Source: an uncultured Candidatus Saccharibacteria bacterium
GTDB taxonomy: Bacteria; Patescibacteriota; Minisyncoccia; Phycocordibacterales; UBA2100
Direction of reading: 5' to 3'
DNA: 64,000 bases
NCBI GenBank assembly: GCA_964462785.1
Contig: CAYWZA010000003.1
Coordinates: 1-64,000, forward strand
Below the pieces are notes generated by a model. That model did not search any database. It was not told where the DNA came from and saw only the letters and a program-made list of their open reading frames with translations. Below are positions 1 to 63,157 of this stretch, one piece after another. Position numbers and translations under genes: made by a program. The stretch's first letter is position 1. Each line of letters starts with the position of its first letter.

Positions 1-50
1 ACACTAGGCTGGTAATGTACAAGGTTGGTGTTCAAAAATATGGGGGAGGG

Positions 51-392
51 TCAAAATTCCTCACCGAAATCCTTCAGAAGTTCGAAGTCGAACTCACCAA
101 GATTCTTGTTAAGTCGTACATTCAGTTCTTTCTCTTTCTCAATGTCAGGGATGTTCACGTAGACCACGGGCATCTCAGTGAAGCCGAGGTCTTTGGCGAC
201 CTTCAATCGGAAGTGTCCGCCGATAACAGTGTTCATCCGCTCCTTTGCGGAGTTACAAATGATAGGGTCAACCAATCCGAATCTAGTAATCGATTCTTTA
301 AGCGCATTAGTTTGCGCTTCATTCCACTTGCGTGGGTTGTATGTACTCGGGTTTAGAGAACCAACGGGTACATATGTAACTTTCATGTCCAT
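51..392 (-). CDS. ParB-like nuclease domain protein (ParB/Srx fold, of the kind often fused to DNA methylases)
   Basis: N-terminal motif KVTYVPVGSLNPSTYNPRKW is typical of ParB-like nuclease domains. It sits in the low-GC island next to the R-M genes. Confidence 0.55.
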   Translation of the reverse strand: MDMKVTYVPVGSLNPSTYNPRKWNEAQTNALKESITRFGLVDPIICNSAKERMNTVIGGHFRLKVAKDLGFTEMPVVYVNIPDIEKEKELNVRLNKNLGEFDFELLKDFGEEF

Positions 393-689
393 ATGTTTTT
401 TGTTGAGTTAAATTCATAAATCCGTTAGTTCTCAATTAGTTAAATAAAAAACGGCGCGCTTGTAGCGACATGAGATTTAGAATCGACCTATCTCAAGTCA
501 CTCAATCAGCTTCACCGTTAGTATCTTCTTTCGAAGTATTTTAAGTATGAGTGATTCTTTTTTTATCCGCAAATAGAGTTTTGCAACGATGGTAAATTAC
601 AAAAATGGCGACGAAATTTTTGCAGAATGCTCACCAAGAATCACCTGCAACTATCGTAAATTGGGGCTGTGGATATCTATGAAGGTTAG

Positions 690-1499
690 CTACCCCCTAA
701 CCTGATTAACAGTTTCAGCAATCACATCTAAAATTTCCTCCATTGTATTCTGTCCACCACTGAGAAAATCCCAAAATTCAGAAGCTATTAAAATTTCATC
801 ATGCGCAAAAAACTTTTTGAATTCGATTAGATAATCAAAAAATCTTGTTTTATCAAAACCTGTTGGTGTTGGAGAAGTGGGGTCAAAAGGAAAACCAACT
901 AAAAATCGTACCCTCTTACCGGAATGCTGTAATTTAAGCGCTGCTTTTCCATATAAAATCTTTTGCTTTTCTCCACGGCCCTCTCCTGAGTTTGGACGGA
1001 CAGACTTTAATTCTATCGCAATGATTTCATCATCCTCTTCAATAAAAGTATCGACAGTAAAAGGGAGAGAGTCAATTTCTGCGTCTTGTGGATCAAATGT
1101 AAGCACCAGATCATCTTCTCGAATCAAATCTGGTAAATGCGTCCCTGCCTTTAGGTCGCGAATAATGTTCTCAATGTGCTCTGCCTGAGTTCTTTTTACC
1201 TTAAGTCTATAAGAGTCTGTAAATTTACGCTTATACCCCCCTGATAAAATATGAGATATATTCTCAAAACCACTACCAAGTGAGGTATTTAGTCCGTGAA
1301 GCCAGCTGGCAATTGCAACAAGATACGGTGTCTCGATATTTAGCGAGCCGAGGCGCTCGTTGAAACATTCAAGAAAAGCCGTATGAAATGGGGCGTTACG
1401 AATTTCTGCACCGACTTCGGGAAAATTTTCTATTCTGCGCAAAAGAATATCTTTTACAACTTCGCTTATTCTATTTTTTTGATCTTGAGTTAAAGCCAT
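690..1499 (-). CDS. Putative Type II restriction endonuclease (PD-(D/E)xK fold)
   Basis: Candidate PD...ExK motif (TVD...IAIELK). It lies immediately downstream of, and on the same strand as, the DNA methyltransferase, with a 3-nt gap. Low GC. Confidence 0.5.
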   Translation of the reverse strand: MALTQDQKNRISEVVKDILLRRIENFPEVGAEIRNAPFHTAFLECFNERLGSLNIETPYLVAIASWLHGLNTSLGSGFENISHILSGGYKRKFTDSYRLKVKRTQAEHIENIIRDLKAGTHLPDLIREDDLVLTFDPQDAEIDSLPFTVDTFIEEDDEIIAIELKSVRPNSGEGRGEKQKILYGKAALKLQHSGKRVRFLVGFPFDPTSPTPTGFDKTRFFDYLIEFKKFFAHDEILIASEFWDFLSGGQNTMEEILDVIAETVNQVRG

Positions 1500-1502
1500 A
1501 AA

Positions 1503-3077
1503 TTATTTTGATTTAAAATGAAAAATTATTTCGGAATATGGATTCCTGTCTCGCTCCGTTCGATTCAAAACGGGTCTTTTAAATTGATTGACAATCTTCA
1601 TCCCAGATTTTTCCGCAATTTCTGGATAGAGATTATATTTATCATTTGCTACAAGGAAAATATCATAATCATCTTTTAGATATTTCTTACAGTTATTTAG
1701 CACATCGGCTATTCCTTGAGAATATGACCTGCGTGCCTCCTGTCCTTGTCCTTTGAAAAGAGGGCCAATTTCTAAATCATCTTTTCTTTTAAATCCTAAC
1801 AAATCGTAAGCATAGGCGTGTTGTTCGTGATAATCTATTTGCCCAACATACGGAGGAGAGCAAAATATACCCGAAATTTTTTGTTTTTTCAGAATCTTTG
1901 CAAATTCATGGTTTTGTTTCTCAACTTTTTCAAAAATATCAACAAACCTTGAGTCGCCAGTAATAGCCGAATAGTGAGCTGGTTTTCGCAACCTTTCAAA
2001 TTCTTTAATTCTTGAAACCGTGTCATATGCATAGCGATTAAGCATTGTTTTTATAGAAAACAACGGCTTGCAAATCTTTTTGTGCTTATAGCAATAATAT
2101 GTAGTTAATTGTGGCTCTTTTAGGGTAGCGAGATCACTGTGTGTCGTGGCTCGGCACGATCTAATTGTTCGACTCAAAATCAGAGCCAAAATCTTTTTTG
2201 TTTTTATGTCTTTTTCTTGTTTTATAGTATTAAAAACATGATCAATTTCTTTTCTCACATTATCCATAAACCAAGTATCTAAAAATGAATCGGTTTTATC
2301 CTGTTTCAGCTTTATTGAATATTTCTTTAGTAATTTCTGGTATATAGGTAAAAACTCTTTCTCTTTTTCAGAAGAGAATATTTTCTCATTAAAATTACCT
2401 TGATTTAATTTATATTTGAAATCTGAGCCGGGAAAATGCTTATTATTAAACTTTGCGAGCTCTGCCAACAGCTCTGTTTCAAATTCTTGAATTTTATTAT
2501 CGTGCTCAAAAGTATCTATTGCCGCGAGCATTTTTTTTATCGCTTTTTGCAGATAATCGTGATCATAGTTTGTTGCTTTGCAACTTGCAATCATGCAATT
2601 AAACTCAGACACATCAATACCAACGGAATGAATACCCATTTCTAGTGCTTGAATAATTGTTGTGCCTGAACCCAGAAAAGGATCAAGAACTATATCGCCA
2701 GTTTTAAAATAAACATCCTTTTTAAAATCATCAGTATGTGAATCAATAAAATATTCGACGAGTTGAGGAATGTATTTTCCTTTATAAGGGTGAAGTCGGT
2801 GGACATGCTTCGTGGTATCTTTCTCACGTAAATTATCAAAGGAAAGCGTCCAGTTTAAATCATTCCCCAAGTTCTTTTTCCAGCTGATTTCGCGTTTCCC
2901 GTTATATGATTCGTAATATTTTTTTAGATCACCCAAATCAACCATCGTGGAGCCATTTTCACCATGTTTTTTTACCTTGCCATATTGCACGAGGTAGGAA
3001 ATATTTGTCGGTGAAACCTCCTTTTCAAGGTAATCAGTAGCCCACTTTGATGCTTCGGGTATTGATACTAGTGACAT
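1503..3077 (-). CDS. DNA methyltransferase, N6-adenine/N4-cytosine family
   Basis: Motif I DPFLGSGTT and motif IV SPPY are present in alpha-class order. Low-GC region. Confidence 0.8.
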   Translation of the reverse strand: MSLVSIPEASKWATDYLEKEVSPTNISYLVQYGKVKKHGENGSTMVDLGDLKKYYESYNGKREISWKKNLGNDLNWTLSFDNLREKDTTKHVHRLHPYKGKYIPQLVEYFIDSHTDDFKKDVYFKTGDIVLDPFLGSGTTIIQALEMGIHSVGIDVSEFNCMIASCKATNYDHDYLQKAIKKMLAAIDTFEHDNKIQEFETELLAELAKFNNKHFPGSDFKYKLNQGNFNEKIFSSEKEKEFLPIYQKLLKKYSIKLKQDKTDSFLDTWFMDNVRKEIDHVFNTIKQEKDIKTKKILALILSRTIRSCRATTHSDLATLKEPQLTTYYCYKHKKICKPLFSIKTMLNRYAYDTVSRIKEFERLRKPAHYSAITGDSRFVDIFEKVEKQNHEFAKILKKQKISGIFCSPPYVGQIDYHEQHAYAYDLLGFKRKDDLEIGPLFKGQGQEARRSYSQGIADVLNNCKKYLKDDYDIFLVANDKYNLYPEIAEKSGMKIVNQFKRPVLNRTERDRNPYSEIIFHFKSK

Positions 3078-3095
3078 AAGTTTATTTTATCAGAT

Positions 3096-3731
3096 TTATT
3101 TGACTATTGGCTTCTTAATTACCTCAACTACTTTTCCATTGACTAAAATATTGTCATCTTCGTGAACAAAAATGGGAGAATATTCTTGTGTTGACTCAGA
3201 CATTAGAAGAATTTGTGAGTTCTTGCTGTCCCAAACATATTTTTTTATGTTTGCCATATTATCAATTATAGAAACAATGTAATCGCCGTCACGGGGCACC
3301 ACAGAACCACTGTCAACAATGACAAAATCTCCTTCCTCAATATTTTTTCCATTGATAGAAGCTTTATTCAAAGAATTTCCCTCGGCTCGAAGTGCAAAGA
3401 GATGTTCCTTTTTAGGTAAAAGTTTCTTAGATATCTTTAAGTACCCCTCTATGTTTTCTTCCGCATATATTGTCCGTGGCCCACAATTAGCTGAACCCAT
3501 AATTGGTACAGATATAAACAAATTTGAACTACTTACTTTGCCACTGACCCTACTTATTAAAGCTTTGTTTTTATCGACAACAATAAAACCCTTCCGTTCA
3601 AGTTGAAAAAGATGATGCTTTATTTTTTGGGGGAGCTTCTCGTCAATAAGTGCTCCTATATCCCGTAAGGTCATGCCACCTATATTTTTTGTCTCGATCA
3701 ATCGCAAGAGTTTTTCTTGTATTGGATGCAT
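3096..3731 (-). CDS. lexA: LexA-like repressor (N-terminal wHTH plus S24 peptidase domain)
   Basis: LexA_DNA_bind-like N-terminus (HLFQLERKGFIVV). S24 motifs GNSL (Ser) and ANIKKY (Lys), with the EGDFVIVD block. Confidence 0.7.
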   Translation of the reverse strand: MHPIQEKLLRLIETKNIGGMTLRDIGALIDEKLPQKIKHHLFQLERKGFIVVDKNKALISRVSGKVSSSNLFISVPIMGSANCGPRTIYAEENIEGYLKISKKLLPKKEHLFALRAEGNSLNKASINGKNIEEGDFVIVDSGSVVPRDGDYIVSIIDNMANIKKYVWDSKNSQILLMSESTQEYSPIFVHEDDNILVNGKVVEVIKKPIVK

Positions 3732-3735
3732 AGGT

Positions 3736-3753
3736 ACAGTATACGTGTTCTGT
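3736..3753. promoter_or_regulatory. Candidate SOS-box-like palindrome ACAG-N10-CTGT just upstream of the lexA-like start
   Basis: ACAGTATACGTGTTCTGT lies 5 nt upstream of the start codon, in the divergent region between the lexA-like and GIY-YIG genes. Confidence 0.25.
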
Positions 3754-3879
3754 CAAAAGTAATCAACAAGTTGTCCACAGATATGACAGAGTTGACAGGA
3801 TATATCTGCAGGTGAGAAAATATAGGCACGTCCTCGGTGTCGACGGGCTCTTAATAATAACGGTAGTCAGAACAACTTC

Positions 3880-4170
3880 ATGGCATTCGTACAACAAGCA
3901 CCAAGACTCTTCACGAAGCAAAACATCGAGGCAATAACCCCAAACCAATACGGTGTGTACGGCATATTCAGCCAAAATCGCTGGATTTACGTTGGTAAGG
4001 GTGATATTCGCACAAGACTCCTCTCTCACCTGAATGGTGATAACCCGCTCATTCTTAGAGCTGGTCCCACACATTGGGTAGATGAGGTTTGTGCAGATCC
4101 GCAGATGAGTGTTCGTGAGAAGCAATTAATACTGGAACTACAGCCAGTCTGTAACCAGAAAGTCGGTTAA
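3880..4170 (+). CDS. GIY-YIG nuclease domain protein
   Basis: Motifs YGVYGIF...IYVGKG...R...H match the GIY/YIG/Arg/His signature. Size is typical of stand-alone GIY-YIG proteins. Confidence 0.65.
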   Translation: MAFVQQAPRLFTKQNIEAITPNQYGVYGIFSQNRWIYVGKGDIRTRLLSHLNGDNPLILRAGPTHWVDEVCADPQMSVREKQLILELQPVCNQKVG

Positions 4171-4195
4171 ATTATTAGCACTAAGCAGTTTTCGC

Positions 4196-4402
4196 ATGGC
4201 AAAATATAATCGCAACGCGGGCAAACACTGGACACCACAAGAAGAGCACAAACTTGTCCAAATGGCTCACGGGAATACCCCAACCCGAGTTATCGGACTT
4301 AAACTTGGAAGACCTGCCGGTGGGGTAACTTCAAAGGCTCAAGAATTGAAAGTGAGTCTCAGACCAGTAAATCAGTCGCCCTACAACCGAAGAAAGAAAT
4401 AA
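4196..4402 (+). CDS. Small basic hypothetical protein
   Basis: 68-aa ORF in the low-GC island, followed by an intrinsic terminator. Confidence 0.3.
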   Translation: MAKYNRNAGKHWTPQEEHKLVQMAHGNTPTRVIGLKLGRPAGGVTSKAQELKVSLRPVNQSPYNRRKK

Positions 4403-4523
4403 CTTTCGTGGGTACTTGGAAAAAGCGACCTAGTAGTTAGAGCTTGATCGCCTGAGGTTGTCGGAATTGTCAAAACGGTAAATTGGCTTGGCTGAGATAG
4501 CGATCGAAAGGCGCACCTTCTCG

Positions 4524-4548
4524 AAACACCCCTTGATGGGGTGTTTTT
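4524..4548 (+). terminator. Rho-independent terminator (AAACACCCC-loop-GGGGTGTTT plus T-run)
   Basis: Perfect 9-bp stem followed by TTTTT, at the island boundary. Confidence 0.55.
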
Positions 4549-4745
4549 CGTTCACTAGACACTTTTCAATCCTTTTATAGTGTCTATCGTGTCTATTGAG
4601 ACCGACCCACATGCCTCAAATTCGCAAGTGGAGAAATCCCTCAAAAACCCTTACAATGATTGGTATGTACGGGCACTTAACCCAAATTCACCGCAGATAG
4701 AAACTTCGAGTTCGGACTGGCTGAACATCTTAAGAAAAAATCACT

Positions 4746-4994
4746 ATGAAATATGTCGCACTGCTGCGGGGTATCAACGTTGGCGGCAACAATATCATCA
4801 AGATGACAGCGCTCAAGGCATGTTTTGAAGACATGGGATTTAGTAATGTCCGGACCGTGATCGCGAGCGGCAATGTTCTTTTTGAATCCCGGGGCAGCGC
4901 CGCGACACTAATACCCGGCACAATATTCACCGTCAGATATACAGCAACTGCGAGCGCGAGCAAGCGGATGATGAAAGACATGTTTTTATCTTAA
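4746..4994 (+). pseudogene. Truncated DUF1697 family gene (N-terminal ~47 aa conserved, remainder lost)
   Basis: MKYVALLRGINVGGNNIIKM...SGNVLFES matches the DUF1697 N-terminus. Full-length members are about 180 aa; this ORF is 82 aa and diverges after residue 47. Confidence 0.45.
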
Positions 4995-5008
4995 CACGAT
5001 GTTATGCT

Positions 5009-5548
5009 GTGTTGATGAAGAAAGTCATTGTCGCAACTGCTGTGTTCATCCTTGTTATCGTCGGGCTCTTTGTGTTTAATGCATATACCTATACTGAAAA
5101 TCCTGCAGATGAGGGTCTTTTCACCGATTACAAAACCGGGCGCTATCTGATAAGTGGCACACCAATGCAACTTGGCATGAATGGCGTACGATATTTTGGT
5201 AACGAAGTACTGGCTGATATCGATAACGACGGGGATCAGGATGTTGCATTTTTAATAACGCAGGAGCGCGGTGAGGATGGGGTGCGCTTTTTCCTTGCGG
5301 GGGCACTTAAGGAGGAGGGTGGGTATCGCGGATCGCAAGCAATGATGATCGGTGACAACATCGCCCCACAAACCACCGAATGGCGCGATGGTTTGGTGCT
5401 TATCAATTTTGCGGAGCGCAGAGCCAATGAACCGCTCACCACGCCGCCACACATGGGCAGAAGCATCTACGCAAAGTACTCCCCCACCGCCAACGACTTT
5501 GGCGAGGTGGTGCAAAATTTCGAGGGCGAATCCGCAAACGGACGGTGA
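5009..5548 (+). CDS. Membrane-anchored hypothetical protein
   Basis: N-terminal TM helix followed by a soluble domain. Confidence 0.45.
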   Translation: MLMKKVIVATAVFILVIVGLFVFNAYTYTENPADEGLFTDYKTGRYLISGTPMQLGMNGVRYFGNEVLADIDNDGDQDVAFLITQERGEDGVRFFLAGALKEEGGYRGSQAMMIGDNIAPQTTEWRDGLVLINFAERRANEPLTTPPHMGRSIYAKYSPTANDFGEVVQNFEGESANGR

Positions 5549-5575
5549 ACACATTCAGACTGGTATCATATACAT

Positions 5576-5902
5576 ATGGATCTTACACAAAAACACTGCG
5601 TGCCATGCGAGGGTGGTGTGATGCCGCTTTTCAAACAGGACGCCGAGGAGATGCTGAAGCAGATACCGGAATGGACGCTCTGGCCTGATGCGAAAACAAT
5701 TTCGCGAGAGTTTTCTTTTAAGGATTTTAAGGGCGCATTTGCGTTTGCGACGAAAGTCGCCGAGCTTGCCGAAGCCGAGGGGCACCACCCCGATATGCTC
5801 ATTTCATGGGGCAAGGTCGGCATTGAGCTTTCGACACACGCGATCGGCGGTCTCTCGGAAAATGATTTCATACTTGCAGCGAAAATAGATGCAGTGGTAT
5901 AG
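5576..5902 (+). CDS. phhB: Pterin-4-alpha-carbinolamine dehydratase
   Basis: Conserved EGHHPD motif and PCD/DCoH-like sequence throughout. Confidence 0.85.
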   Translation: MDLTQKHCVPCEGGVMPLFKQDAEEMLKQIPEWTLWPDAKTISREFSFKDFKGAFAFATKVAELAEAEGHHPDMLISWGKVGIELSTHAIGGLSENDFILAAKIDAVV

Positions 5903-5950
5903 CCGCCGGTGCGGGTAAAAAAATTTTCTATCCACATCCCTCTCTAGCGC

Positions 5951-6250
5951 GTGCATGCAGAGCGCTATACTGAATGCATGATGTATAACAATGATTTCGG
6001 GGGCGGAGCAATGATGGGTCAGGAGGCGTTTAATCTGCCGTTCTTTGATCCGACGTGGTTCATTATTTTCCTGCTCTGGACGCTCGTCTGGAAAGGGCTC
6101 GCGCTCTGGCATGCCGCACAGCGCGAGGATAAGCTCTGGTTCATTGCCCTCCTCGTCATCAATACCGCCGGACTGCTTGAAATTATTTATTTGTTCTTCG
6201 TAGCGAAAAAGAAATTCACCGATTTGTTTCCGGTGGGAGAGATTAAATAG
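5951..6250 (+). CDS. Small two-TM membrane protein (hypothetical)
   Basis: Hydrophobic segments (WFIIFLLWTLVWKGLALW and WFIALLVINTAGLL). The start may be an internal Met. Confidence 0.45.
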   Translation: MHAERYTECMMYNNDFGGGAMMGQEAFNLPFFDPTWFIIFLLWTLVWKGLALWHAAQREDKLWFIALLVINTAGLLEIIYLFFVAKKKFTDLFPVGEIK

Positions 6251-6278
6251 GTACTCCAATTGAAAAACCACCCCATGT

Positions 6279-6821
6279 TCATGGGGTGGTTGGTTTTCTG
6301 CGTTCGCTGTTGTTTCTTCGCCGACTTTTTCGCTCATCTGGTACACTGCCAAGTCCGCCAGACAAATTCACCGGTCGAAAGCCGAGCTCGAGAAGTATCT
6401 CGCATGCGCGCTCACTACGCACACCACCAGCACACATAACCAATACTTCCCCTGTCCTATTTTTTTCCTCAGACACCCATTTGAGCTGCGAAGATGCTTT
6501 CACATCAGTCCGAAATTGCTCCTCGTTTTTATAATCAAACGGAATGTATGCTATGACAGTATTGCCTGAAAATCGCAGCCATACGTCCTGCGTCTCCGCA
6601 TCTGAGCGCACATCGAGTATGCACGGTGAGGAATGCCCATTGAGATACGTTCCCAGCGCGTCTGCTTCACTGCTGGGAAACGGTTTCCGTATTTTCAGGA
6701 CATTAGGGATTTTCGGAATATTGGGAACACGAACCGTGGGTGGCATATTGACACCTTTCCGTGCCATCCAAAGCGCGACACCGACAATGACTATTGTCAC
6801 TAGTGCCGAAACAAGCAGCAT
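6279..6821 (-). CDS. Rhodanese-domain protein (sulfurtransferase-like)
   Basis: Active-site loop CAGGVRS, an N-terminal TM helix and a C-terminal basic tail. Confidence 0.65.
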   Translation of the reverse strand: MLLVSALVTIVIVGVALWMARKGVNMPPTVRVPNIPKIPNVLKIRKPFPSSEADALGTYLNGHSSPCILDVRSDAETQDVWLRFSGNTVIAYIPFDYKNEEQFRTDVKASSQLKWVSEEKNRTGEVLVMCAGGVRSERACEILLELGFRPVNLSGGLGSVPDERKSRRRNNSERRKPTTP

Positions 6822-6905
6822 ATTCGCCTCCCTATGTAACGATCTGTTCCCATCCTAGCAGAACCGCGACTAGTGTACACACTGTGACATTGCTACAATC
6901 CTTCC

Positions 6906-9047
6906 ATGCACACAAGCGATCTGCTGGAGAATCTGTTTCGATTGGCGGCGCCGCAAAGATCGGCGCTGCGTCGACTCGGAATCCTAACGGTGCACGATCT
7001 GCTCTACCATTTCCCTGCGCGTTATGATGCCCCCGGAACGACAGGGACGGTGAGTAATTTGCGGCACGGCGAGAAAGTAACACTCTACGGCACACTCTCG
7101 AAAGTCGAAGCGAAGCGCCTCTGGAAAAGCCGCCGCCCCGCTGCTGAAGGTATGTTCGAAGACGGCACAGGGCGCGTGAAAGTACTGTGGTTCAACCAGC
7201 CCTATCTGGCAAAGATGGTTCCGCAGCAGGTGATGGTGAAGCTCACCGGCACCGTCGCAGGAAACGACCGCCCGTATATCACCAATCCTGAGATCGAGCC
7301 GATCGCGAATAGTGCTATTCCTGAAAGGCTGTTTTCGAGAGATGCGCCGACAAACAGCTCTGAGATCTTTCCGGTGTATCCGGAATCGCACGGCATCACA
7401 AGCCGCTGGATGTATCACGCGCTCAAGAAAATTTTTGAGAGCGGTGTGCTCAACGAGCTCGAGGATCCGCTGCCGGATAGTGCCCGCGAACGCTATCATT
7501 TACCTGATCTGAAGACTGCGCTCGTGTGGGTGCATATGCCTAAATCAAAGCGTGACGCTGAGGCGGCGCGTAAACGATTTTCGTTTGAAGAAATTTTCAC
7601 CATCCAGCTTGCCCGTGCGCTCGAGCGCAAAGAGAATGACACACAATCATCGTTTTCGATCACCGTCGATGATGCGCGTATCCGCGCGTTCATAGAAACA
7701 CTCCCCTTCCCGCTCACCACGGCGCAGGAGCGCGCCATCGCCGATATCCTTGCGGATTTTAAAAAGCCGCACCCGATGGCGCGCCTCCTTGAGGGCGATG
7801 TCGGCTCGGGTAAAACGGTAGTCGCTGCGGTAAGTGCGTACGCCGCCGTCACTTCTCGCCCCAAAAACCGCATGAGCGGCACACTGCAAGTCGCCTACAT
7901 GGCACCGACTGAAATCCTCGCTGCGCAGCACTTTCAATCGTTCATCGAATTCTTTAAGGAGCTCCCGATTAATATCGGGCTCATCACGGGGAGCGGCTGC
8001 TATAAATTTCCTTCGAAAGCCAATCGGGACAAGCCGACACCAATATCACGTGCACAGCTTTTGAAGTGGGTCGCGAACGGTGAAATTGCATTTCTGATCG
8101 GCACGCATGCGCTTATACAGAAAAGTGTGAAATTCGCGCACTTAGCGTACGCGATCGTTGATGAACAGCATCGCTTTGGCACCGCCCAGCGCAAAAAACT
8201 CGCACACAAAGGCGATGCGCCTCCGCATTTTCTTTCAATGACCGCAACACCTATTCCGCGCACGCTCGCGCTCACTATGTACGGCGATTTGGATCTCTCC
8301 ATTCTAGATGAGCTACCGAAAAATCGCGCGGGCGTCGAAACGCTCATTGTCCCCAAGGAGAAGCGCACTGGCGCATACGAAGCAATGCGTGCAGAAATCG
8401 CATCGGGCAGGCAGGCATATGTCATCTGCCCGCGCATTGACGAACCTGATCCGGAAAAAGAACTTGCCCTCCTCGTGAAATCGGCAAAGGCGGAGGCGGC
8501 TCGACTCAAAAAAGAAGTGTTTCCTGAATGTGCTGTCGGGCTCCTCCACGGTAAAATGAATCAGAAAGAAAAAGATGCGGCGATGCATGCGTTTGCATCA
8601 GGTGGCACACACATTCTCGTCGCCACATCGGTCGTCGAGGTCGGCGTAAATGTGCCAAACGCCACTATGATGATCATCGAGGGTGCGGAACGATTTGGAC
8701 TTGCACAGCTGCACCAGCTGCGCGGGCGCATATTGCGCAGTTCGCATCAGGCATATTGCTATCTCTTCCCCACTGGTGCTGCGGGAGTCAAAAATGAGCG
8801 GCTCAAGGCAGTCGCAAAAACACGCGATGGCTTTGCCCTTGCAGAAGCAGATTTGCAATTGCGCGGCGCAGGCGATTTATATGGTCGCGCGCAGTGGGGC
8901 ATGTCGGATCTTGGTATGGAAGCGCTCAAAAACCCTCGTCTCATCGAAGCTGCGCGCGAAACAGCGCAGTCCGTTGCCCAAGGTCCCCTGAATGACTCGC
9001 TGAGAGGACGGCTCGCGCACGTGTTAGAACAACTGCACGCTGAATAG
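6906..9047 (+). CDS. recG: ATP-dependent DNA helicase RecG
   Basis: Walker A GDVGSGKT, DEQH box (VDEQHRFG) and helicase motifs QLRGRILR. Confidence 0.9.
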   Translation: MHTSDLLENLFRLAAPQRSALRRLGILTVHDLLYHFPARYDAPGTTGTVSNLRHGEKVTLYGTLSKVEAKRLWKSRRPAAEGMFEDGTGRVKVLWFNQPYLAKMVPQQVMVKLTGTVAGNDRPYITNPEIEPIANSAIPERLFSRDAPTNSSEIFPVYPESHGITSRWMYHALKKIFESGVLNELEDPLPDSARERYHLPDLKTALVWVHMPKSKRDAEAARKRFSFEEIFTIQLARALERKENDTQSSFSITVDDARIRAFIETLPFPLTTAQERAIADILADFKKPHPMARLLEGDVGSGKTVVAAVSAYAAVTSRPKNRMSGTLQVAYMAPTEILAAQHFQSFIEFFKELPINIGLITGSGCYKFPSKANRDKPTPISRAQLLKWVANGEIAFLIGTHALIQKSVKFAHLAYAIVDEQHRFGTAQRKKLAHKGDAPPHFLSMTATPIPRTLALTMYGDLDLSILDELPKNRAGVETLIVPKEKRTGAYEAMRAEIASGRQAYVICPRIDEPDPEKELALLVKSAKAEAARLKKEVFPECAVGLLHGKMNQKEKDAAMHAFASGGTHILVATSVVEVGVNVPNATMMIIEGAERFGLAQLHQLRGRILRSSHQAYCYLFPTGAAGVKNERLKAVAKTRDGFALAEADLQLRGAGDLYGRAQWGMSDLGMEALKNPRLIEAARETAQSVAQGPLNDSLRGRLAHVLEQLHAE

Positions 9048-10855: not shown

Positions 10856-10928
10856 CCGCCTGTAGCTCAATGGTTAGAGCACGGAGCTTATACCTCCGGG
10901 GTTCCTGGTTCGAGTCCAGGCAGGCGGA
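10856..10928 (+). tRNA. tRNA-Ile with anticodon UAU (reads AUA)
   Basis: Manual fold: 7-bp acceptor stem CCGCCTG/CAGGCGG, D-arm GCTC/GAGC, anticodon stem CGGAG/CTCCG with loop CTTATAC, T-arm CCTGG-TTCGAGT-CCAGG, discriminator A, no encoded CCA. Confidence 0.75.
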
Positions 10929-10978
10929 CAAATTCGAGCAAAGCGAGAATTTTCCGTCAGGAAAAATACTCGTGACGA

Positions 10979-26798: not shown

Positions 26799-28184
26799 TC
26801 ACCAGTCAAGCACAAACGCTTCGTTTGCATCCGGCGCAATCGCGTCAACCCCGAGAAAATCACGCAAACGCTGCGTGAGAAACAGCGCAGAACGCGGCTC
26901 CCCCATAGCCACAAACACCCGCTTGAGCGTTGCTGCAGTCTTTTCTATGAATGCAATGAGTCCGTCACGGTCTTTATGTGCCGAATATCCATGTAACTGC
27001 GCGATTCTAGCGCGCACGCGCACCCATTGCCCGTCAATACGCACCTTCGACGCTCCTTCGGCAAGCCGCCGCCCCAATGAACCGACTGACTGATATCCGG
27101 GAAATAAAATGGTGGTGTGCCGCTCGCTTAAAAACACGCGCTCGTGCGAGCGGATCCGCCCGCCTGATGACATGCCCGAACCGGCGATAATAACTTTTGG
27201 ATTTGGTGAATCATAGATGCCGCGAGAATCCGCCGCGCTCGCTGTTATCGTCAGACCATCAAAAGAAAACGGATCGCCTGACTTCAATTTTTTCTGTACT
27301 TCATCATTCAAATAGCTTGGGTACTTCCTATACACCGCCATCAGCTGGATGGCGAGCGGAGCATCCAGAAAAACTGGTATGGACTTAATAGCGCCGCTCC
27401 CGATCAGTGCGCTTATCTCGTACAGAAGAATTTGCGTCCGCTCGAGTGAGAATGCCGGGATGAGAAGGACGCCCGCGTGCTTGCGGGTGTATTCCACCGC
27501 TTCCTTAAGCGTCTCGCGGCGCGTGTCGGTCCCCTCATGATTGCGGTCTCCATAGACACTTTCCATAACGATGTATGTGGCATCTGAGATTTCTTCCGTC
27601 TTTCGCGCTATGGGTGCGTTGTCGTTTCCTAAATCACCTGTGAAAACAATTTTTTTGCCGCCGCGTGACAATTCCACCATTGCAGAGCCGAGTATGTGCC
27701 CCGCATCGCGTAGTCGCACCTGTACCCCATCAGCTAATTGCAAATCCTCGTGATACTCAATGGTCGACCACAATGACAGCGCGTGTTCGATATCTTCCTC
27801 GGTATAGAGCAGCGGTCGTGGATTTCCACGCTTAGCCAGCTCTTCCTTCAACACTTTGAGTGCATCTGCGAGCATGAGCTCAGTGATGTCTTTCGTGGGC
27901 GGTGTCGAATAGATTTTTCCCCTGAAACCCTGCGCTACTAAACGCGGTATGCGCCCAATATGATCGGTGTGCCCGTGCGTGACGATGAGCACATCAATTG
28001 ATGCGGGATTGTATCCGAAATCCGCCCAGTTTGCTTCAGCGCAAAAATCGCCATTTTGAATAAGACCGCAGTCGATGAGTATCTTTTGCGTGCCGGTTTC
28101 TAAAAGAAAATTGGCGCCGGTTACAGTTCCGGCGCCACTTTTAAAGGTGAGGGTTGCTTTTGTGTCGTCAGCGCGCTCTGCCAT
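26799..28184 (-). CDS. MBL-fold beta-CASP ribonuclease (CPSF/RNase J-like, RMMBL C-terminus)
   Basis: HGHTDH motif, beta-CASP region and C-terminal HGYSAHKDRDGL (RMMBL). Confidence 0.7.
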   Translation of the reverse strand: MAERADDTKATLTFKSGAGTVTGANFLLETGTQKILIDCGLIQNGDFCAEANWADFGYNPASIDVLIVTHGHTDHIGRIPRLVAQGFRGKIYSTPPTKDITELMLADALKVLKEELAKRGNPRPLLYTEEDIEHALSLWSTIEYHEDLQLADGVQVRLRDAGHILGSAMVELSRGGKKIVFTGDLGNDNAPIARKTEEISDATYIVMESVYGDRNHEGTDTRRETLKEAVEYTRKHAGVLLIPAFSLERTQILLYEISALIGSGAIKSIPVFLDAPLAIQLMAVYRKYPSYLNDEVQKKLKSGDPFSFDGLTITASAADSRGIYDSPNPKVIIAGSGMSSGGRIRSHERVFLSERHTTILFPGYQSVGSLGRRLAEGASKVRIDGQWVRVRARIAQLHGYSAHKDRDGLIAFIEKTAATLKRVFVAMGEPRSALFLTQRLRDFLGVDAIAPDANEAFVLDW

Positions 28185-29211: not shown

Positions 29212-29814
29212 CTACTCAAGTATGCCGTCGAGGTTTACGTCGTAGAGAATTGCCTCGGGAATCAGTCGATAATTGACTATGTCCTCGGCGGTGAGCCATA
29301 AAGCAATTTCGCGCTCTGCGTCCCCCACATTATCCGAACAGTGGATGAGGTTGCGCACCGCGCGGTCGTCCACGGCGGCAATCGCGTACGAATCGAGTGT
29401 GAGATCGCCACGAATGGTTCCCACGTCCGACGTGGAAGGTTCTGTCTCCCCCACCAACTTCTTTACCACCGCGACAGCCTGATTGCCCTGAAACGCCATC
29501 ATGACCGTGGGGCCTGCCATCATAAATTTCACCAGGGCGCGGATAATGTCCTTGCCGTATTCAAGCGGCTCCTTGTCCGCTTCAAGACCGGCTGCTTTTC
29601 TATCTTCAATAATCTTGGTTCCTTTCTTTAAAAACCACGCATCATCTTTGTTGTAGTGTTCCCAGAGCTTTTTCTCATTAAGCATGCCGAATTTCATGCT
29701 GATAAGCTTGAGCCCCGTGCGTTCAAAACGCTTTAAGATTTCACCGACAAGCGAACGCTGCACGCCATCGGGCTTCACGATCACAAATGTTCGTTCAGAT
29801 TTAAAATGAGCCAT
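29212..29814 (-). CDS. ndk: Nucleoside diphosphate kinase (with an insertion)
   Basis: ERTFVIVKPDGVQR and NLIHCSD (NxxHxSD) motifs. Confidence 0.85.
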   Translation of the reverse strand: MAHFKSERTFVIVKPDGVQRSLVGEILKRFERTGLKLISMKFGMLNEKKLWEHYNKDDAWFLKKGTKIIEDRKAAGLEADKEPLEYGKDIIRALVKFMMAGPTVMMAFQGNQAVAVVKKLVGETEPSTSDVGTIRGDLTLDSYAIAAVDDRAVRNLIHCSDNVGDAEREIALWLTAEDIVNYRLIPEAILYDVNLDGILE

Positions 29815-32605
29815 AACTGTTTGCTAAATTATCGGGTGGTAATGCGTTTGTACTATACCGCGCTTTTATCTCCGCCTCAACCTCTTCTCGCGGGCGACCA
29901 TACTGCTCGTACGAGCGTTGTTTGAGGTACTCAATGCGCGTATAGTCTGCGGTGTCTGGTTTGAGCGTCTGCATATTGAATGGCTTCACCGGTTTACCGT
30001 GGACCAAGAGCGACATGTAGGCATTGAAATTATCGAGGTGCATGATGTCGCTCGCGTTGAATTCCGGCATAAACATCTTCTCCAAAAACTCGGCGTCTTT
30101 TTCACCCACACGGAATACGCAGCGCGTACCCACGTTGCCAAACACCGAGTCGCGGATATCGTCGGTGAGCTGATCGATAAATTGATGCGCAATAGTAAGC
30201 ACCAATTTATATTTACGCGCCTCAGAAAGAATGGTGGAAATCGAAGGCGTGGTGAAATTTTGGAATTCATCTATGTAGAGATAGAAGGGATTCATTTCTT
30301 CGCGCCCCACCATATCAACGCGTGAAAATGCCGCATTCAATATCTTGCCGACGAAAATAAGTCCGAGGAGCGATGTGTTCATCTCGCCGAGTTTGCCTTT
30401 CGCAAGATTGATGAGCAAAATCTTCTTCTCATCCATTACCTTTCTGAAATCGAATGCCGAATGTTCCTGCGCAATAATAGGGCGCATAATTTCGTTGGCG
30501 AGAAAGATGTCGAATTTGTTGGTGACATACTGCGCGAAGTTCTCAAGCGACTGCTCGCCCTGCGTCTTGGTCGCAATATCGCGCCAAAACTGCACTAACA
30601 GAGGATTCTGACACTTCGAGAGCTTCAGATCCCGGAACTGCGGGTTTGCAAATATGCGTGTGATGTCCACCATGGTGTTCCCTGACGCAGGATCCTCCAT
30701 GACCAAGAGCGTGGAGTTTCTGAAATACTGCTCAAATGCCGGTCCAACAGCCCCCTCCACATGCCCGTATAACTTTTGGAATATGCCAAACAGCTCATCT
30801 ACGAGAAATGTTTTTTGTTCGGGGAAACGCGTATCGTATTCGAGCATGTTGAGCCCCATGGGGCGCGGATAGTAGCCCGGATCAAAGTAGATAAGATCCT
30901 TTTCCCGCTCGGGCGGTACGGCGGCAAGCACGTCTTGAATGTCAGATCCGTGCGGATCGATGTAGCACACCCCTTTCCCGCTGAGAATATCCTGAATGAT
31001 CATGTTCTTCATGAGCGTGGTCTTACCGGTGCCGGTCTGCCCCACTACATACATGTGACGAAGACGATCTTCTTCTGAAAAGAAGATTTTCTTTTCAGCC
31101 GCGCCAAATCGATTGCTGCCGAGGACGATGCCGTCTTCCGGCATATCCGTCGGCGGCGGTGATTGTTTGGAGCGCGATTGCTTGAGCTCGCGCGATGTGC
31201 GCACGCCTTCGGCAGTAAGATGATAAATGGAGGTGAGCTCGGCAAAATTGAGCGGGAGCGCGCGGGAAGCCTCGGGCAAGCGCATGACGAAATTGTGCAA
31301 TTCGCCCTTCGTCGCCCACCATGATGCTTCCTGAAAGACGATGCTGTTCCCCTGCGGGTCTTCAAACTGATTGAATGTGGAAGCGAGATTGGCGATGATA
31401 TCGCGCGCGCGTTCCTCGTGCCCCGCAGATGCGATGAGGCGGATGTTAACCGGCACAATGCGCGTCTTGAGCTTCTTTTGCACGCGCTCGGTCGCCTCTT
31501 GCTCGGGATTGTGCTCTTCTTTTTTCTTCTCACTCGTGAAGAGTGCTTTTGCAAAGTCATCAGCCACCTCGCCGATGCGACTTTCCGGCACCTTCACCGC
31601 TTTCTTGAACTTCTTTCCTTTGTGCAGCTCCTTGAGAATTTTTTTGTAATGCTTGCTGTACCGCTCCCCTTCGTTGCCAACGATGATCTGAATTGCAGCG
31701 CCTTCGCCATACTTTTTGAGTTTGCCGAATGCCGAAAGCAACACGTTCATCGGATCGTGTTTGAAATCCTCGTAGGTGCGTATGGGGAGCGACGGGTGCT
31801 CAGGTAATGTGGCATACGCAACGGCATGATACCCTTCGTTATTAAAAATATTGTAGTCACCGCGTGTTTCGGTTATTTTTGCATTCGGAAATATGGAGAG
31901 CACGTGCCTCTCAAACAAGTCGCGCTTCTTTGTCGGTACTGCCATGTAGAAAATAGCATCCTCAGTCCCCTGCGGCACGGCAATTTCCAGAGAAAACACA
32001 TTCTGCCTGCTATCGCTATTGCCGCTCGCAATTGCCAAAAGCCCCGCATAGAGCTGCTCCATCGAAGCGAGCAGGTGCTCAAGCCCTTGCTGATCTTCTT
32101 CGCGCTTGAAAGCGCCTTGCGGGTGTACTTCATAGAGCGTCATGTTGAGCGCACGCCATGTCTGACTCGATTCGAGATTGCGTGACACTATATTTCCTCC
32201 GACAGGAAGCCCCTCGGCAATATAGCGCACTAGCGCGCGATGCAGATCATCTTCGATGTGTGGGTTTTCCATTTTTGCGGCAACGGTAAGCGCATTTCTG
32301 ATGCCGCGCTCGGCAACTATCCGCAATAGTGCATCAATCTGCGTATCGTGCTCCTCGGGCTCAAGCCGCAAGGCTTCGCGCATAGCATCATGCTCAGGCA
32401 TCGCCACCGTCTCGTGAAGCACCGTCGTGGGAGACATATCCGCATAGCGCACAATCTCGCGTTTCGCGATACGCTCTTGCTCGAAGTTATTTTCAGGCAG
32501 CGATAGCTCCTTTTCTTTTTCCTCAATCCGCTCGCGCAAATACGCAATTTCCTCCTGCGGTGTGCGGAATTTCTGCGCTTCCGGCGCTCGTGTCCTCGGT
32601 TCCAT
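29801..32605 (-). CDS. VirD4/TraG-like (T4SS DNA-binding / DUF87-type) P-loop ATPase, 934 aa
   Basis: Walker A VGQTGTGKTT, IDPHG, Walker B YIDEFQNF and TIAHQ motifs in the C-terminal half. Long N-terminal extension. Confidence 0.55.
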   Translation of the reverse strand: MEPRTRAPEAQKFRTPQEEIAYLRERIEEKEKELSLPENNFEQERIAKREIVRYADMSPTTVLHETVAMPEHDAMREALRLEPEEHDTQIDALLRIVAERGIRNALTVAAKMENPHIEDDLHRALVRYIAEGLPVGGNIVSRNLESSQTWRALNMTLYEVHPQGAFKREEDQQGLEHLLASMEQLYAGLLAIASGNSDSRQNVFSLEIAVPQGTEDAIFYMAVPTKKRDLFERHVLSIFPNAKITETRGDYNIFNNEGYHAVAYATLPEHPSLPIRTYEDFKHDPMNVLLSAFGKLKKYGEGAAIQIIVGNEGERYSKHYKKILKELHKGKKFKKAVKVPESRIGEVADDFAKALFTSEKKKEEHNPEQEATERVQKKLKTRIVPVNIRLIASAGHEERARDIIANLASTFNQFEDPQGNSIVFQEASWWATKGELHNFVMRLPEASRALPLNFAELTSIYHLTAEGVRTSRELKQSRSKQSPPPTDMPEDGIVLGSNRFGAAEKKIFFSEEDRLRHMYVVGQTGTGKTTLMKNMIIQDILSGKGVCYIDPHGSDIQDVLAAVPPEREKDLIYFDPGYYPRPMGLNMLEYDTRFPEQKTFLVDELFGIFQKLYGHVEGAVGPAFEQYFRNSTLLVMEDPASGNTMVDITRIFANPQFRDLKLSKCQNPLLVQFWRDIATKTQGEQSLENFAQYVTNKFDIFLANEIMRPIIAQEHSAFDFRKVMDEKKILLINLAKGKLGEMNTSLLGLIFVGKILNAAFSRVDMVGREEMNPFYLYIDEFQNFTTPSISTILSEARKYKLVLTIAHQFIDQLTDDIRDSVFGNVGTRCVFRVGEKDAEFLEKMFMPEFNASDIMHLDNFNAYMSLLVHGKPVKPFNMQTLKPDTADYTRIEYLKQRSYEQYGRPREEVEAEIKARYSTNALPPDNLANSYGSF

Positions 32606-63027: not shown

Positions 63028-63083
63028 TCGCTCTGTGGGTCTTTGTTTTGTGCCTGTGAAATAAGAGTTGGTACCGCCCTGCG

Positions 63084-63157
63084 TGCGCGTGATAGGACTC
63101 GAACCTATGACCTCGTCATTATCAGTGACGTGCTCTAACCAGCTGAGCTACACGCGC
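63084..63157 (-). tRNA. tRNA-Ile (anticodon GAU)
   Basis: Manual fold of the reverse complement: acceptor GCGCGTG/CACGCGC, D-arm GCTC-AGCTGGTTA-GAGC, anticodon stem CGTCA/TGACG with loop CTGATAA, T-arm ATAGG-TTCGAGT-CCTAT. Confidence 0.8.

Follow-up and report, generated by a model that had tools for sequence, protein, structure and literature searches.

Introduction

Type II restriction-modification (R-M) systems regulated by a controller (C) protein, such as PvuII, BamHI and Esp1396I, and methyltransferases in which an N-terminal helix-turn-helix (HTH) represses the enzyme's own promoter, such as M.SsoII, M.EcoRII and M.MspI, are the closest described counterparts of the locus analysed here. 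This locus lies at the start of a 64,000-nucleotide stretch of DNA (the window; contig CAYWZA010000003.1 of assembly GCA_964462785.1, positions 1–64,000) from an uncultured Candidatus Saccharibacteria bacterium, where a gene for a LexA-type repressor heads a DNA methyltransferase gene (M) and a restriction endonuclease gene (R). Two further pieces of background are relevant: after DNA damage, Type I restriction is alleviated by ClpXP-dependent degradation of HsdR, and R-M systems are reported to be a mainstay of defence in bacteria of the candidate phyla radiation (CPR)/Patescibacteria. That R-M systems do not kill their own host, either while they become established or after DNA repair, has so far been put down to C proteins, to autoregulation of the methylase and to antisense RNAs, and in Type I systems to proteolytic alleviation; a cleavable LexA heading Type II cassettes would, if true, link a DNA damage signal directly to methylase supply. 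A 2014 review of R-M regulation, which covers the C-protein-regulated systems, names no LexA-type controller among those listed (PMC3874152), and no description of LexA-headed R-M cassettes or LexA–methyltransferase fusions was found in the literature searched, one paper on the Patescibacteria SOS response (Sanchez-Osuna et al. 2017) lying outside that search.

The locus resembles each of these precedents in part. Like a C protein, its regulator is a DNA-binding protein that heads the R-M transcription unit, with the autoregulation and timing that this would bring, but it is a 211-residue protein of the LexA type with an S24 self-cleavage domain and no HTH_3, and it precedes M rather than R; unlike plain C-protein systems, many relatives of the window's LexA locus also add a separate C protein at the R end. 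The LexA–methyltransferase fusions described below share with M.SsoII-type methylases an M-side control through a DNA-binding domain tied to the methylase, whereas what binds DNA in them is an entire LexA, equipped with winged helix, cleavage site and Ser/Lys protease, so that self-cleavage could cancel repression irreversibly; in the window LexA and M are separate genes. The proposed purpose, which is to avoid self-restriction at unmodified sites arising from repair or recombination, is that of Type I alleviation, although the cassette is Type II and would act by a hypothetical derepression of M through a cleavable repressor instead of proteolysis of the nuclease. Finally, the window's protein has in common with SOS LexA (E. 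coli, Thermotoga and Mycobacterium structures) its full-length alignment, fold, candidate cleavage site and Ser/Lys dyad, a conserved repeat in its own promoter and related clades that are chromosomal or recA-adjacent, but it scores below the curated cutoff and its clade travels inside R-M cassettes.

We propose, with a probability of roughly 60%, that positions 393–3860 constitute a mobile Type II R-M cassette headed by a LexA-type self-cleaving repressor, in which lexA, M and R would form an operon derepressed by DNA damage. The recurrence of the LexA–R-M arrangement suggests that these defence systems are wired to the DNA damage alarm. A wider proposition, which we put forward as tentative, is that LexA-type repressors, whether they head mobile lexA-M(-R) cassettes or are joined to the methylase in one protein, are a widespread and unrecognised third class of R-M controller beside C proteins and HTH-bearing methylases, providing a methylation boost triggered by DNA damage and hence a brake on autoimmunity; in the fusions, self-cleavage would free the methylase from the promoter-bound repressor domain. 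The cassette is experimentally testable: it measures about 3 kb, its promoter elements are defined and its catalytic residues have been predicted.

Results and Discussion

A Type II R-M cassette of foreign composition

The lexA, M and R genes lie on one strand, separated by 18 nt (lexA–M) and 3 nt (M–R) (Table 1). The R product matches Pfam RE_TdeIII over profile positions 2–240 of 242 (E=1.7e-48) and PADLOC REase_II (E=3.3e-66), and M carries its motifs in the order motif I (DPFLGSGTT), then motif IV (SPPY). With S-adenosylmethionine (AdoMet) and SPPY motifs in M and an adjacent endonuclease of known family, the pair is a predicted Type II R-M system; that an endonuclease lies directly downstream of a DPFLGSGTT/SPPY methyltransferase, as stated in an initial annotation of this DNA, was confirmed by translation, Pfam and PADLOC. 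No open reading frame (ORF) for an HTH_3 controller (about 70–100 aa) was found within 393–3860.

The same annotation had taken the first ~4.6 kb for a single AT-rich island acquired horizontally, comprising a ParB-like protein, the R-M pair, a LexA-like repressor and a GIY-YIG protein. All these ORFs were located in the window, and the region is indeed AT-rich, its four 1-kb intervals over 1–4000 having a GC content of 0.33–0.40 (z −5.1 to −7.5 relative to the 59 1-kb intervals of 5001–64,000, mean 0.526, s.d. 0.025). The deviation is strong, however, only over about 393–3860. At third codon positions the GC content (GC3) is 0.29 for R, 0.30 for M and 0.31 for LexA, as compared with 0.55–0.62 for host genes of the window; it is host-like for the ParB ORF (0.53) and intermediate for the GIY-YIG ORF (0.44) and an adjoining 68-aa ORF (0.41). 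The supposed island is therefore three pieces, namely the low-GC LexA/M/R unit (~393–3860), the ParB ORF, which is probably a methyltransferase fragment, and a separate GIY-YIG/68-aa module. Horizontal acquisition holds for the LexA/M/R unit, which is compositionally foreign and of a kind shared between unrelated flanks. The left edge of the region is out of sight: the 64,003-bp contig is nearly all inside the window, and the only other contig carrying the window's LexA (L001) breaks at the same point.

Table 1. Coordinates of the genes and DNA elements discussed; positions refer to the window unless preceded by a locus identifier.
Feature	Position	Strand	Remarks
ParB_N-domain ORF, 113 aa	51–392	−	Pfam ParB_N E=1e-9; outside the low-GC cassette
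Type II restriction endonuclease R, TdeIII family, 269 aa	690–1499	−	Pfam RE_TdeIII, PADLOC REase_II
DNA methyltransferase M, N6_N4 family, 524 aa	1503–3077	−	Pfam N6_N4_Mtase E=1e-17; PADLOC MTase_II E=1.7e-231
Candidate extended −10 promoter of M	3084–3092	−	TGATAAAAT; 6 nt before the M ATG, inside the portable M-R module
LexA-type S24 autoprotease/repressor, 211 aa	3096–3731	−	Pfam Peptidase_S24 E=2e-18
lexA promoter (promoter scan)	3738–3766	−	−35 TTGATT 3761–3766, 17-nt spacer, −10 TATACT 3738–3743
TTGACA element in the promoter spacer	3751–3756	−	Nearly invariant; candidate operator half-site
DnaA-box-like motif	3770–3779	−	TGTGGACAAC; just upstream of the lexA −35; family consensus TGTGGAWAAC
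Direct repeat TGTCAA-N3-TGTCAT	3783–3797	−	Candidate LexA operator
Divergent promoter toward the GIY-YIG gene	3792–3821	+	TTGACA, 18-nt spacer, TG-extended GAAAAT
Probable GIY-YIG nuclease, 96 aa	3880–4170	+	Divergent from lexA
Basic protein, 68 aa	4196–4402	+	Downstream of the GIY-YIG gene; weak Myb/SANT-like match
Intrinsic-terminator-like hairpin and U-run	4524–4551	+	Hairpin 4524–4546; closes the GIY-YIG/68-aa unit
Truncated DUF1697 gene	4746–4994	+	Pfam DUF1697 positions 1–56 of 137 only
LexA–methyltransferase fusion, 616 aa	L185:1842–3692	+	ORF verified uninterrupted
LexA–methyltransferase fusion, 507 aa	L185:8109–9632	−	ORF verified uninterrupted

The head gene encodes a LexA-type protein

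More than 1,500 homologues of the window's LexA were found, the best 120 of which are all about 210 aa long and 65–91% identical; those among the 120 with a named source come from CPR/Patescibacteria metagenome bins. The family profile aligns full-length to LexA of the PDB (E ~3e-8, residues 22–207 against 28–198 of LexA) and also to UmuD'. A candidate cleavage site, C83–G84, lies within the invariant stretch A81-N82-C83-G84-P85, and the putative Ser/Lys dyad, S120 (GNSL) and K163 (IKKY), is invariant in 23 sequences, the two regions aligning to the GDSM and VKKL motifs of UmuD/LexA. Cys-Gly is also the cleavage site used by UmuD.

The AlphaFold model of the protein is of moderate confidence (pLDDT, the predicted local distance difference test, 64), with linker residues 64–108 below 50; its N-domain is modelled at pLDDT 79–92 as a winged helix of the order helix-helix-helix-strand-strand. 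As judged by Foldseek, the best matches of the model are full-length LexA structures (E ~1e-8), and the C-domain has a TM score of 0.79 both to M. tuberculosis LexA and to UmuD. Pfam LexA_DNA_bind reaches 18.8 bits, below the cutoff of 23.7. The model points to an N-terminal domain of the LexA winged-helix type and not of the CI HTH type, and the earlier description of a full-length LexA/CI-like S24 protein is upheld by alignment and fold, both of which match LexA.

Methylases adjoin LexA in related genomes

The LexA family was scanned with one genome per species; from 331 relatives 80 loci were kept, or 76 after removal of duplicates, and their neighbour genes were called, clustered and annotated with Pfam. 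A Pfam-confirmed DNA methyltransferase lies directly downstream of LexA, in the same orientation, in 27 of the 76 species-representative loci, with the families C5 (12 loci), N6_N4 (10), Eco57I-type (3) and D12 (2). The intervening gap is at most 56 nt in 26 of these; the exception, L022, has a Vsr-like ORF inside a gap of 367 nt. L054 and L072, in which the gene after LexA has no Pfam match, were left out of the count. M is adjacent and co-oriented in every confirmed locus, and the orientation of R is variable, usually convergent. The R partners include LlaMI, Alw26I and PvuII-like types, and in the relatives an HTH_3 C protein of 73 aa (c9, HTH_3 E=2e-14) often stands before R. The suggestion that a LexA-type repressor stands in for the usual C-protein control gains strong comparative support from these loci, from the exchange of LexA lineages and from the fusions described below, but "rather than" a C protein does not hold as a general rule, since many relatives carry LexA before M together with an HTH_3 C protein before R.

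The R-M-linked LexAs, including that of the window, form one clade (neighbour-joining, 83 of 100 bootstraps). A second context is that of the 24 Paceibacteria-clade loci. There LexA lies among conserved housekeeping genes, flanked by acetate kinase and phosphoketolase to one side and by MscL and a P-type ATPase to the other, and no methylase adjoins it in any of them. The third, the only one with recA beside lexA, comprises seven Chitinophagaceae loci, in which recA is adjacent and divergent in all six with a visible upstream gene; about 19 loci fall outside these three contexts. The LexAs of the Chitinophagaceae bins (L024, L026–L030, L036) are of the CPR type, 59–65% identical to that of the window, and share a TTGACA-N3-TTGACA repeat. 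As published SOS regulators of Bacteroidetes belong to a different, non-canonical family (PMC8565304), the CPR-type LexA of these bins looks horizontally acquired.

Two side observations concern the neighbours of such LexAs. A small protein of about 100 aa is often encoded divergently just upstream of R-M-linked lexA (HNH, DUF3892, and GIY-YIG in the window; upstream genes were noted in L004–L006, L008, L013, L014, L016, L022, L054 and L061), and this neighbour in lexA's regulatory region may be a damage-inducible small nuclease. In a Bacteroidota bin, a LexA of the same clade is followed by a gene for a Shedu-type (SduA_C) nuclease instead of a methylase (L023:6795–7574, + strand); LexA-headed layouts may extend to other defence systems.

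The cassette moves as a unit and exchanges its parts

L012 and L017 are 84.6% identical over a 2.78-kb block that begins some 146 nt before lexA and closes with R, and their flanks are unrelated; over the same lexA-to-R block, L012, L017, L018 and L019 share 82–89% DNA identity between flanks without homology. By these alignments, promoter, LexA, M and R travel as one unit of about 2.8 kb, and the conserved unit spans only about 2.8–3.5 kb across loci. A hairpin is found about 105–135 nt upstream of lexA at the left boundary of the conserved cassette (L008/L016, L012/L017 and others); in some loci it is a bidirectional terminator-like stem between A and T runs, and the stems vary in sequence but stay complementary.

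Parts of the unit are exchanged as well. In the pairs L008/L016 and L059/L061 homology runs as far as the LexA stop codon, is lost across a differing M-R core and returns in the C gene, so that LexA and C appear as bookends around swappable specificity modules. The M-R module of the window is delimited at 691–3092 by homology to many metagenome loci, which ends at 691 and reaches ~3092, and on this evidence the M-R and LexA modules are separately portable. The window's M belongs to a 90%-identity cluster of 58 members and has more than 561 relatives in metagenome contigs, unlike the host proteins of the window, which are singletons at 90% identity.

To see what heads this module elsewhere, 69 metagenome loci with a methylase 70–95% identical to the window's M and at least 700 nt of upstream sequence were surveyed. 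An S24/LexA gene ends 4–71 nt before M in 36 of them; 35 of the 36 were scanned with Pfam and all match Peptidase_S24, and LexA_DNA_bind was matched by 32 of the 39 proteins in the head-gene scan. In three loci the slot before M is held by an HTH_3 protein of 68–70 aa, a likeness to C-protein systems. The S24 head genes belong to at least three lineages besides the window's own: a canonical LexA of 202 aa that shares only 23% identity with that of the window, a chimera in L120 with a window-type S24 domain but a different DNA-binding domain, and a further LexA type in L170. L092 and L093 retain a decayed remnant of the canonical LexA.

The size and surroundings of the unit make it very improbable that the locus is a decayed prophage or integrative element, with the S24 protein as a CI/SetR-type immunity repressor and the R-M pair as cargo. 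S24 repressors are typical of prophages and of integrative and conjugative elements (ICEs), and those of the CI/SetR kind in prophages and SXT-family ICEs likewise combine with divergent promoters in a damage-responsive mobile element; the divergent promoters with shared repeats in the window resemble such an immunity switch, and a TraD-like protein is encoded elsewhere in the window. But the cassette, unlike those elements, is only some 3 kb long and lacks integration, replication and transfer genes. No integrase, phage or transfer genes were found beside it (1–9000 of the window and the flanks of the 27 other loci), and ordinary host genes lie within 1–3 kb. Moreover, close relatives of the window's LexA are rare in viral contigs, IMG/VR holding only four full-length relatives at 38–45% identity, and its predicted N-terminal domain is not of the CI type.

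LexA–methyltransferase fusions

A 523-kb contig reached through relatives of the GIY-YIG ORF (L185) carries two fusion ORFs that join LexA_DNA_bind, Peptidase_S24 and N6_N4 domains (Table 1). The two differ in their DNA-binding helices and lie 4.4 kb apart, both within 8 kb; one is followed by a MwoI/SfiI-like endonuclease, and the defence island around them also encodes AbiE, NERD and small HNH and GIY-YIG proteins. Among the best 120 matches to the 616-aa protein there are about 21 clusters of full-length fusions, the proteins being 507–642 aa long (e.g. P0263, P0271, P0284, P0339 and P0344), and one HTH_3–methyltransferase fusion came up in the same search (P0331). Some of the fusions, in Patescibacteria and Omnitrophica, are named "transcriptional repressor LexA" at NCBI; in such genomes this name can thus denote a methyltransferase fusion or a cassette regulator and not the SOS master regulator. 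The fusion of the two genes is a separate line of evidence for a joint function of the LexA module and the methylase.

The fusions also bear on the explanation that LexA is simply the host's global SOS repressor and that R-M genes insert preferentially at a hotspot downstream of lexA, with no dedicated regulatory link. In keeping with a hotspot, the family includes chromosomal LexAs amid housekeeping genes, the recA-linked LexAs of Chitinophagaceae carry the same upstream repeat, no genome gives two loci among the 80 kept, and M seemingly has a promoter of its own. A hotspot would not, however, readily account for a LexA with the same foreign GC3 as M and R, for the movement of promoter, LexA, M and R as one unit between unrelated flanks, or for the adjacency and co-orientation of M in 27 of 27 confirmed loci when the orientation of R varies. 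Also against it are the four LexA lineages that head the same M-R module and the LexA–methylase fusions, two of which differ in their DNA-binding domains yet share an 8-kb stretch of a single contig. We consequently regard this explanation as unlikely.

Regulatory DNA around lexA

An alignment of 27 lexA upstream regions of about 90 nt showed a conserved spacing of TTGnnn, TATAAT and ATG. The lexA ATG follows the −10 box by 6 nt, so that the mRNA is probably leaderless. The TTGACA element in the spacer is inverted relative to the upstream GTCAA repeats; as a −35 box of lexA it was rejected, being only 7 nt from the −10 box, and TTGATT takes that role. The palindrome at 3736–3753, earlier put forward as the operator, had to be abandoned: it is not conserved in relatives and represents the overlap of the TTGACA element with the −10 box.

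A better operator candidate is the direct repeat at 3783–3797, which is the only exact match in the 64-kb window, where no SOS gene carries the repeat. The pattern GTCAA-N3/4-GTCAA occurs in 34 of 77 lexA upstream regions, as compared with seven occurrences in the remaining 762 kb. Patescibacteria LexA is cited in PMC7739468 and PMC8565304 as binding a direct repeat, and the conserved repeat would fit the operator so cited in PMC7739468. The distal copy of the repeat, on the opposite strand, is the −35 box of the divergent promoter, which matches at 10 of 12 positions and has the TG extension; relatives show an equivalent TTGACA-17-TAAAAT.

Of 25 LexA-linked loci, 19 also have a −10-like hexamer no more than 22 nt from the start of M, as opposed to 26% of other ORFs (p=4e-7), and its extended TGn form precedes M in 11 of the 25 as opposed to 5.4% of other ORFs. 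M probably has a basal promoter of its own, to judge from this enrichment.

Finally, a motif noted upstream of lexA across L007–L086, TGTGGAWAA, was located in 58 of the 77 lexA upstream regions, as compared with 28 matches in the other ~742 kb, and is present as well upstream of several unrelated LexA lineages (L103–L181) and of both L185 fusions (L185:1788 and L185:9718). DnaA or another shared factor may control lexA in these bacteria. The box near the lexA −35 is a perfect or near-perfect DnaA box, TGTGGATAA, the reverse complement of TTATCCACA; the candidate DnaA box is also written TGTGGATAAC.

Proposed mechanism and its weighing

In the mechanism that we propose, LexA would bind the GTCAA-type repeats around its own promoter and so repress the probably leaderless lexA-M-R transcript, while the extended −10 before M would maintain a basal floor of methylase. 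In a naive cell that contains no repressor, the operon would fire and then be throttled as LexA builds up, a timing that works on the same principle as that of a C protein. The SOS signal would come from self-restriction where sites are unmethylated, or from repair synthesis: single-stranded DNA and RecA filaments would elicit self-cleavage of LexA at C83–G84 by the Ser120/Lys163 dyad, and the resulting derepression would restore methylation, in the window raising R as well, in a manner resembling a Type II restriction alleviation. That unbalanced Type II R-M activity induces the SOS response has been described (PMC3874152), and breaks introduced by the nuclease of the cassette itself would count as such damage. 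The GIY-YIG/68-aa unit is probably regulated together with lexA, since its divergent promoter overlaps the repeats around the lexA promoter.

Several observations weigh against a damage-derepressed cassette. The regulation of lexA-M-R is inferred at every step. The NCBIfam lexA model (TIGR00498) gives the window's protein 93.7 bits, below the equivalog cutoff of 110.95, and no recA was found in the window. The recA-linked Chitinophagaceae subclade is nested inside the R-M-linked LexA clade, and among the 80 loci kept no genome with an R-M-linked LexA contributes a further LexA of this family, so that the LexA may also be, or only be, the SOS regulator of the cell. About 30 of the 69 surveyed relatives of the M-R module have no regulator gene upstream of M, from which it follows that LexA is dispensable for many copies of the module. 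If M has a promoter of its own, its coupling to the lexA promoter could be weak. Lastly, by its layout R is presumably co-transcribed with M in the window, and induction would therefore raise the toxin along with the antidote.

This co-transcription is at the same time what an induced defence would require, that is, immunity and not self-protection, in which phage attack or the breakdown of phage DNA activates RecA, LexA is cleaved and the output of the R-M system rises. Derepression would raise R in the window, the cassette stands beside small nuclease genes, the relatives in L185 belong to a defence island that includes AbiE and NERD, and in L023 the same LexA is followed by the Shedu-type gene. 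In most relatives, on the other hand, R is convergent and often comes with a separate C protein; M alone would then be within reach of LexA, and a rise in M would protect the incoming DNA. The fusions, moreover, join LexA to the methylase and not to the nuclease. Since induction could reach only M in most relatives, and since it is M that takes part in the fusions, we favour a brake on autoimmunity and consider induced defence an improbable alternative.

Flanking genes and other features of the window

The ParB_N domain of the leftmost ORF bears out the ParB part of the initial call of a stand-alone ParB-like nuclease, but not its standing alone. Residues 3–103 align to positions 8–110 of the 436-position PADLOC MTase_II profile PDLC03229, and the stop codon is 50 nt from the contig end. 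Because the alignment covers only the first 110 positions of a methyltransferase profile and the contig ends so close by, the ORF is probably the N-terminal fragment of a ParB–methyltransferase fusion. An exact-protein look-up with this ORF gave no match.

On the other side of the cassette, the divergent orientation of the GIY-YIG ORF stands, and its assignment is weak: in a single-sequence Pfam search it scores 15.8 bits (E=0.018), under the cutoff of 22.6. The family profile, however, matches the UvrC GIY-YIG domain of the PDB at E=0.0039 with the catalytic residues aligned; Y27, Y37, G39, R46, E80 and N92 are invariant in the family, and some of the 234 homologues at 63–81% identity are named GIY-YIG by their sources. 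A comparison by hhalign of this profile with a Pfam-positive 94-aa GIY-YIG neighbour protein gave no match, and no LexA motifs were found upstream of GIY-YIG homologues at other loci. The 68-aa protein (Pfam Myb_DNA-binding, E=0.031) has a 77%-identical homologue at L170:3787–3996 (− strand), which lies beside a LexA-M-R cassette of a different LexA lineage and is likewise the second gene transcribed divergently from LexA. PADLOC has no model matching LexA, the GIY-YIG ORF or the 68-aa protein.

The terminator called at the right end of the region is consistent with the hairpin and U-run (RNA fold of 4505–4562, dG −19.6, z −3.09), and the truncated gene beyond it proved to be the DUF1697 fragment, which is host-side debris outside the cassette. 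It is faced by an N-terminal fragment of a holin-family-like membrane protein (4730–4981, − strand; weak, E=0.011). The facing N-terminal fragments in 4730–4994 suggest a deletion that took both 3' ends and not an island junction.

Elsewhere in the window, a scan with Rfam returned tmRNA and tRNAs only, and of eight large ORFs scanned with NCBIfam, FtsH was the sole one named. A tRNA-Ile(UAU) (10856–10929, + strand) is present beside a tRNA-Ile(GAU) (63083–63157), an uncommon route to reading AUA in bacteria. A 934-aa protein (29801–32605, − strand) has a weak TraD/coupling-protein match (E=2e-14) and is a possible component of transfer or type IV secretion. A 461-aa metallo-beta-lactamase/beta-CASP nuclease (26799–28184, − strand) is similar both to the Cas14 model of type VII CRISPR, which it matches at E=4e-114 but well below the model cutoff, and to archaeal RNases of the aCPSF1 type.

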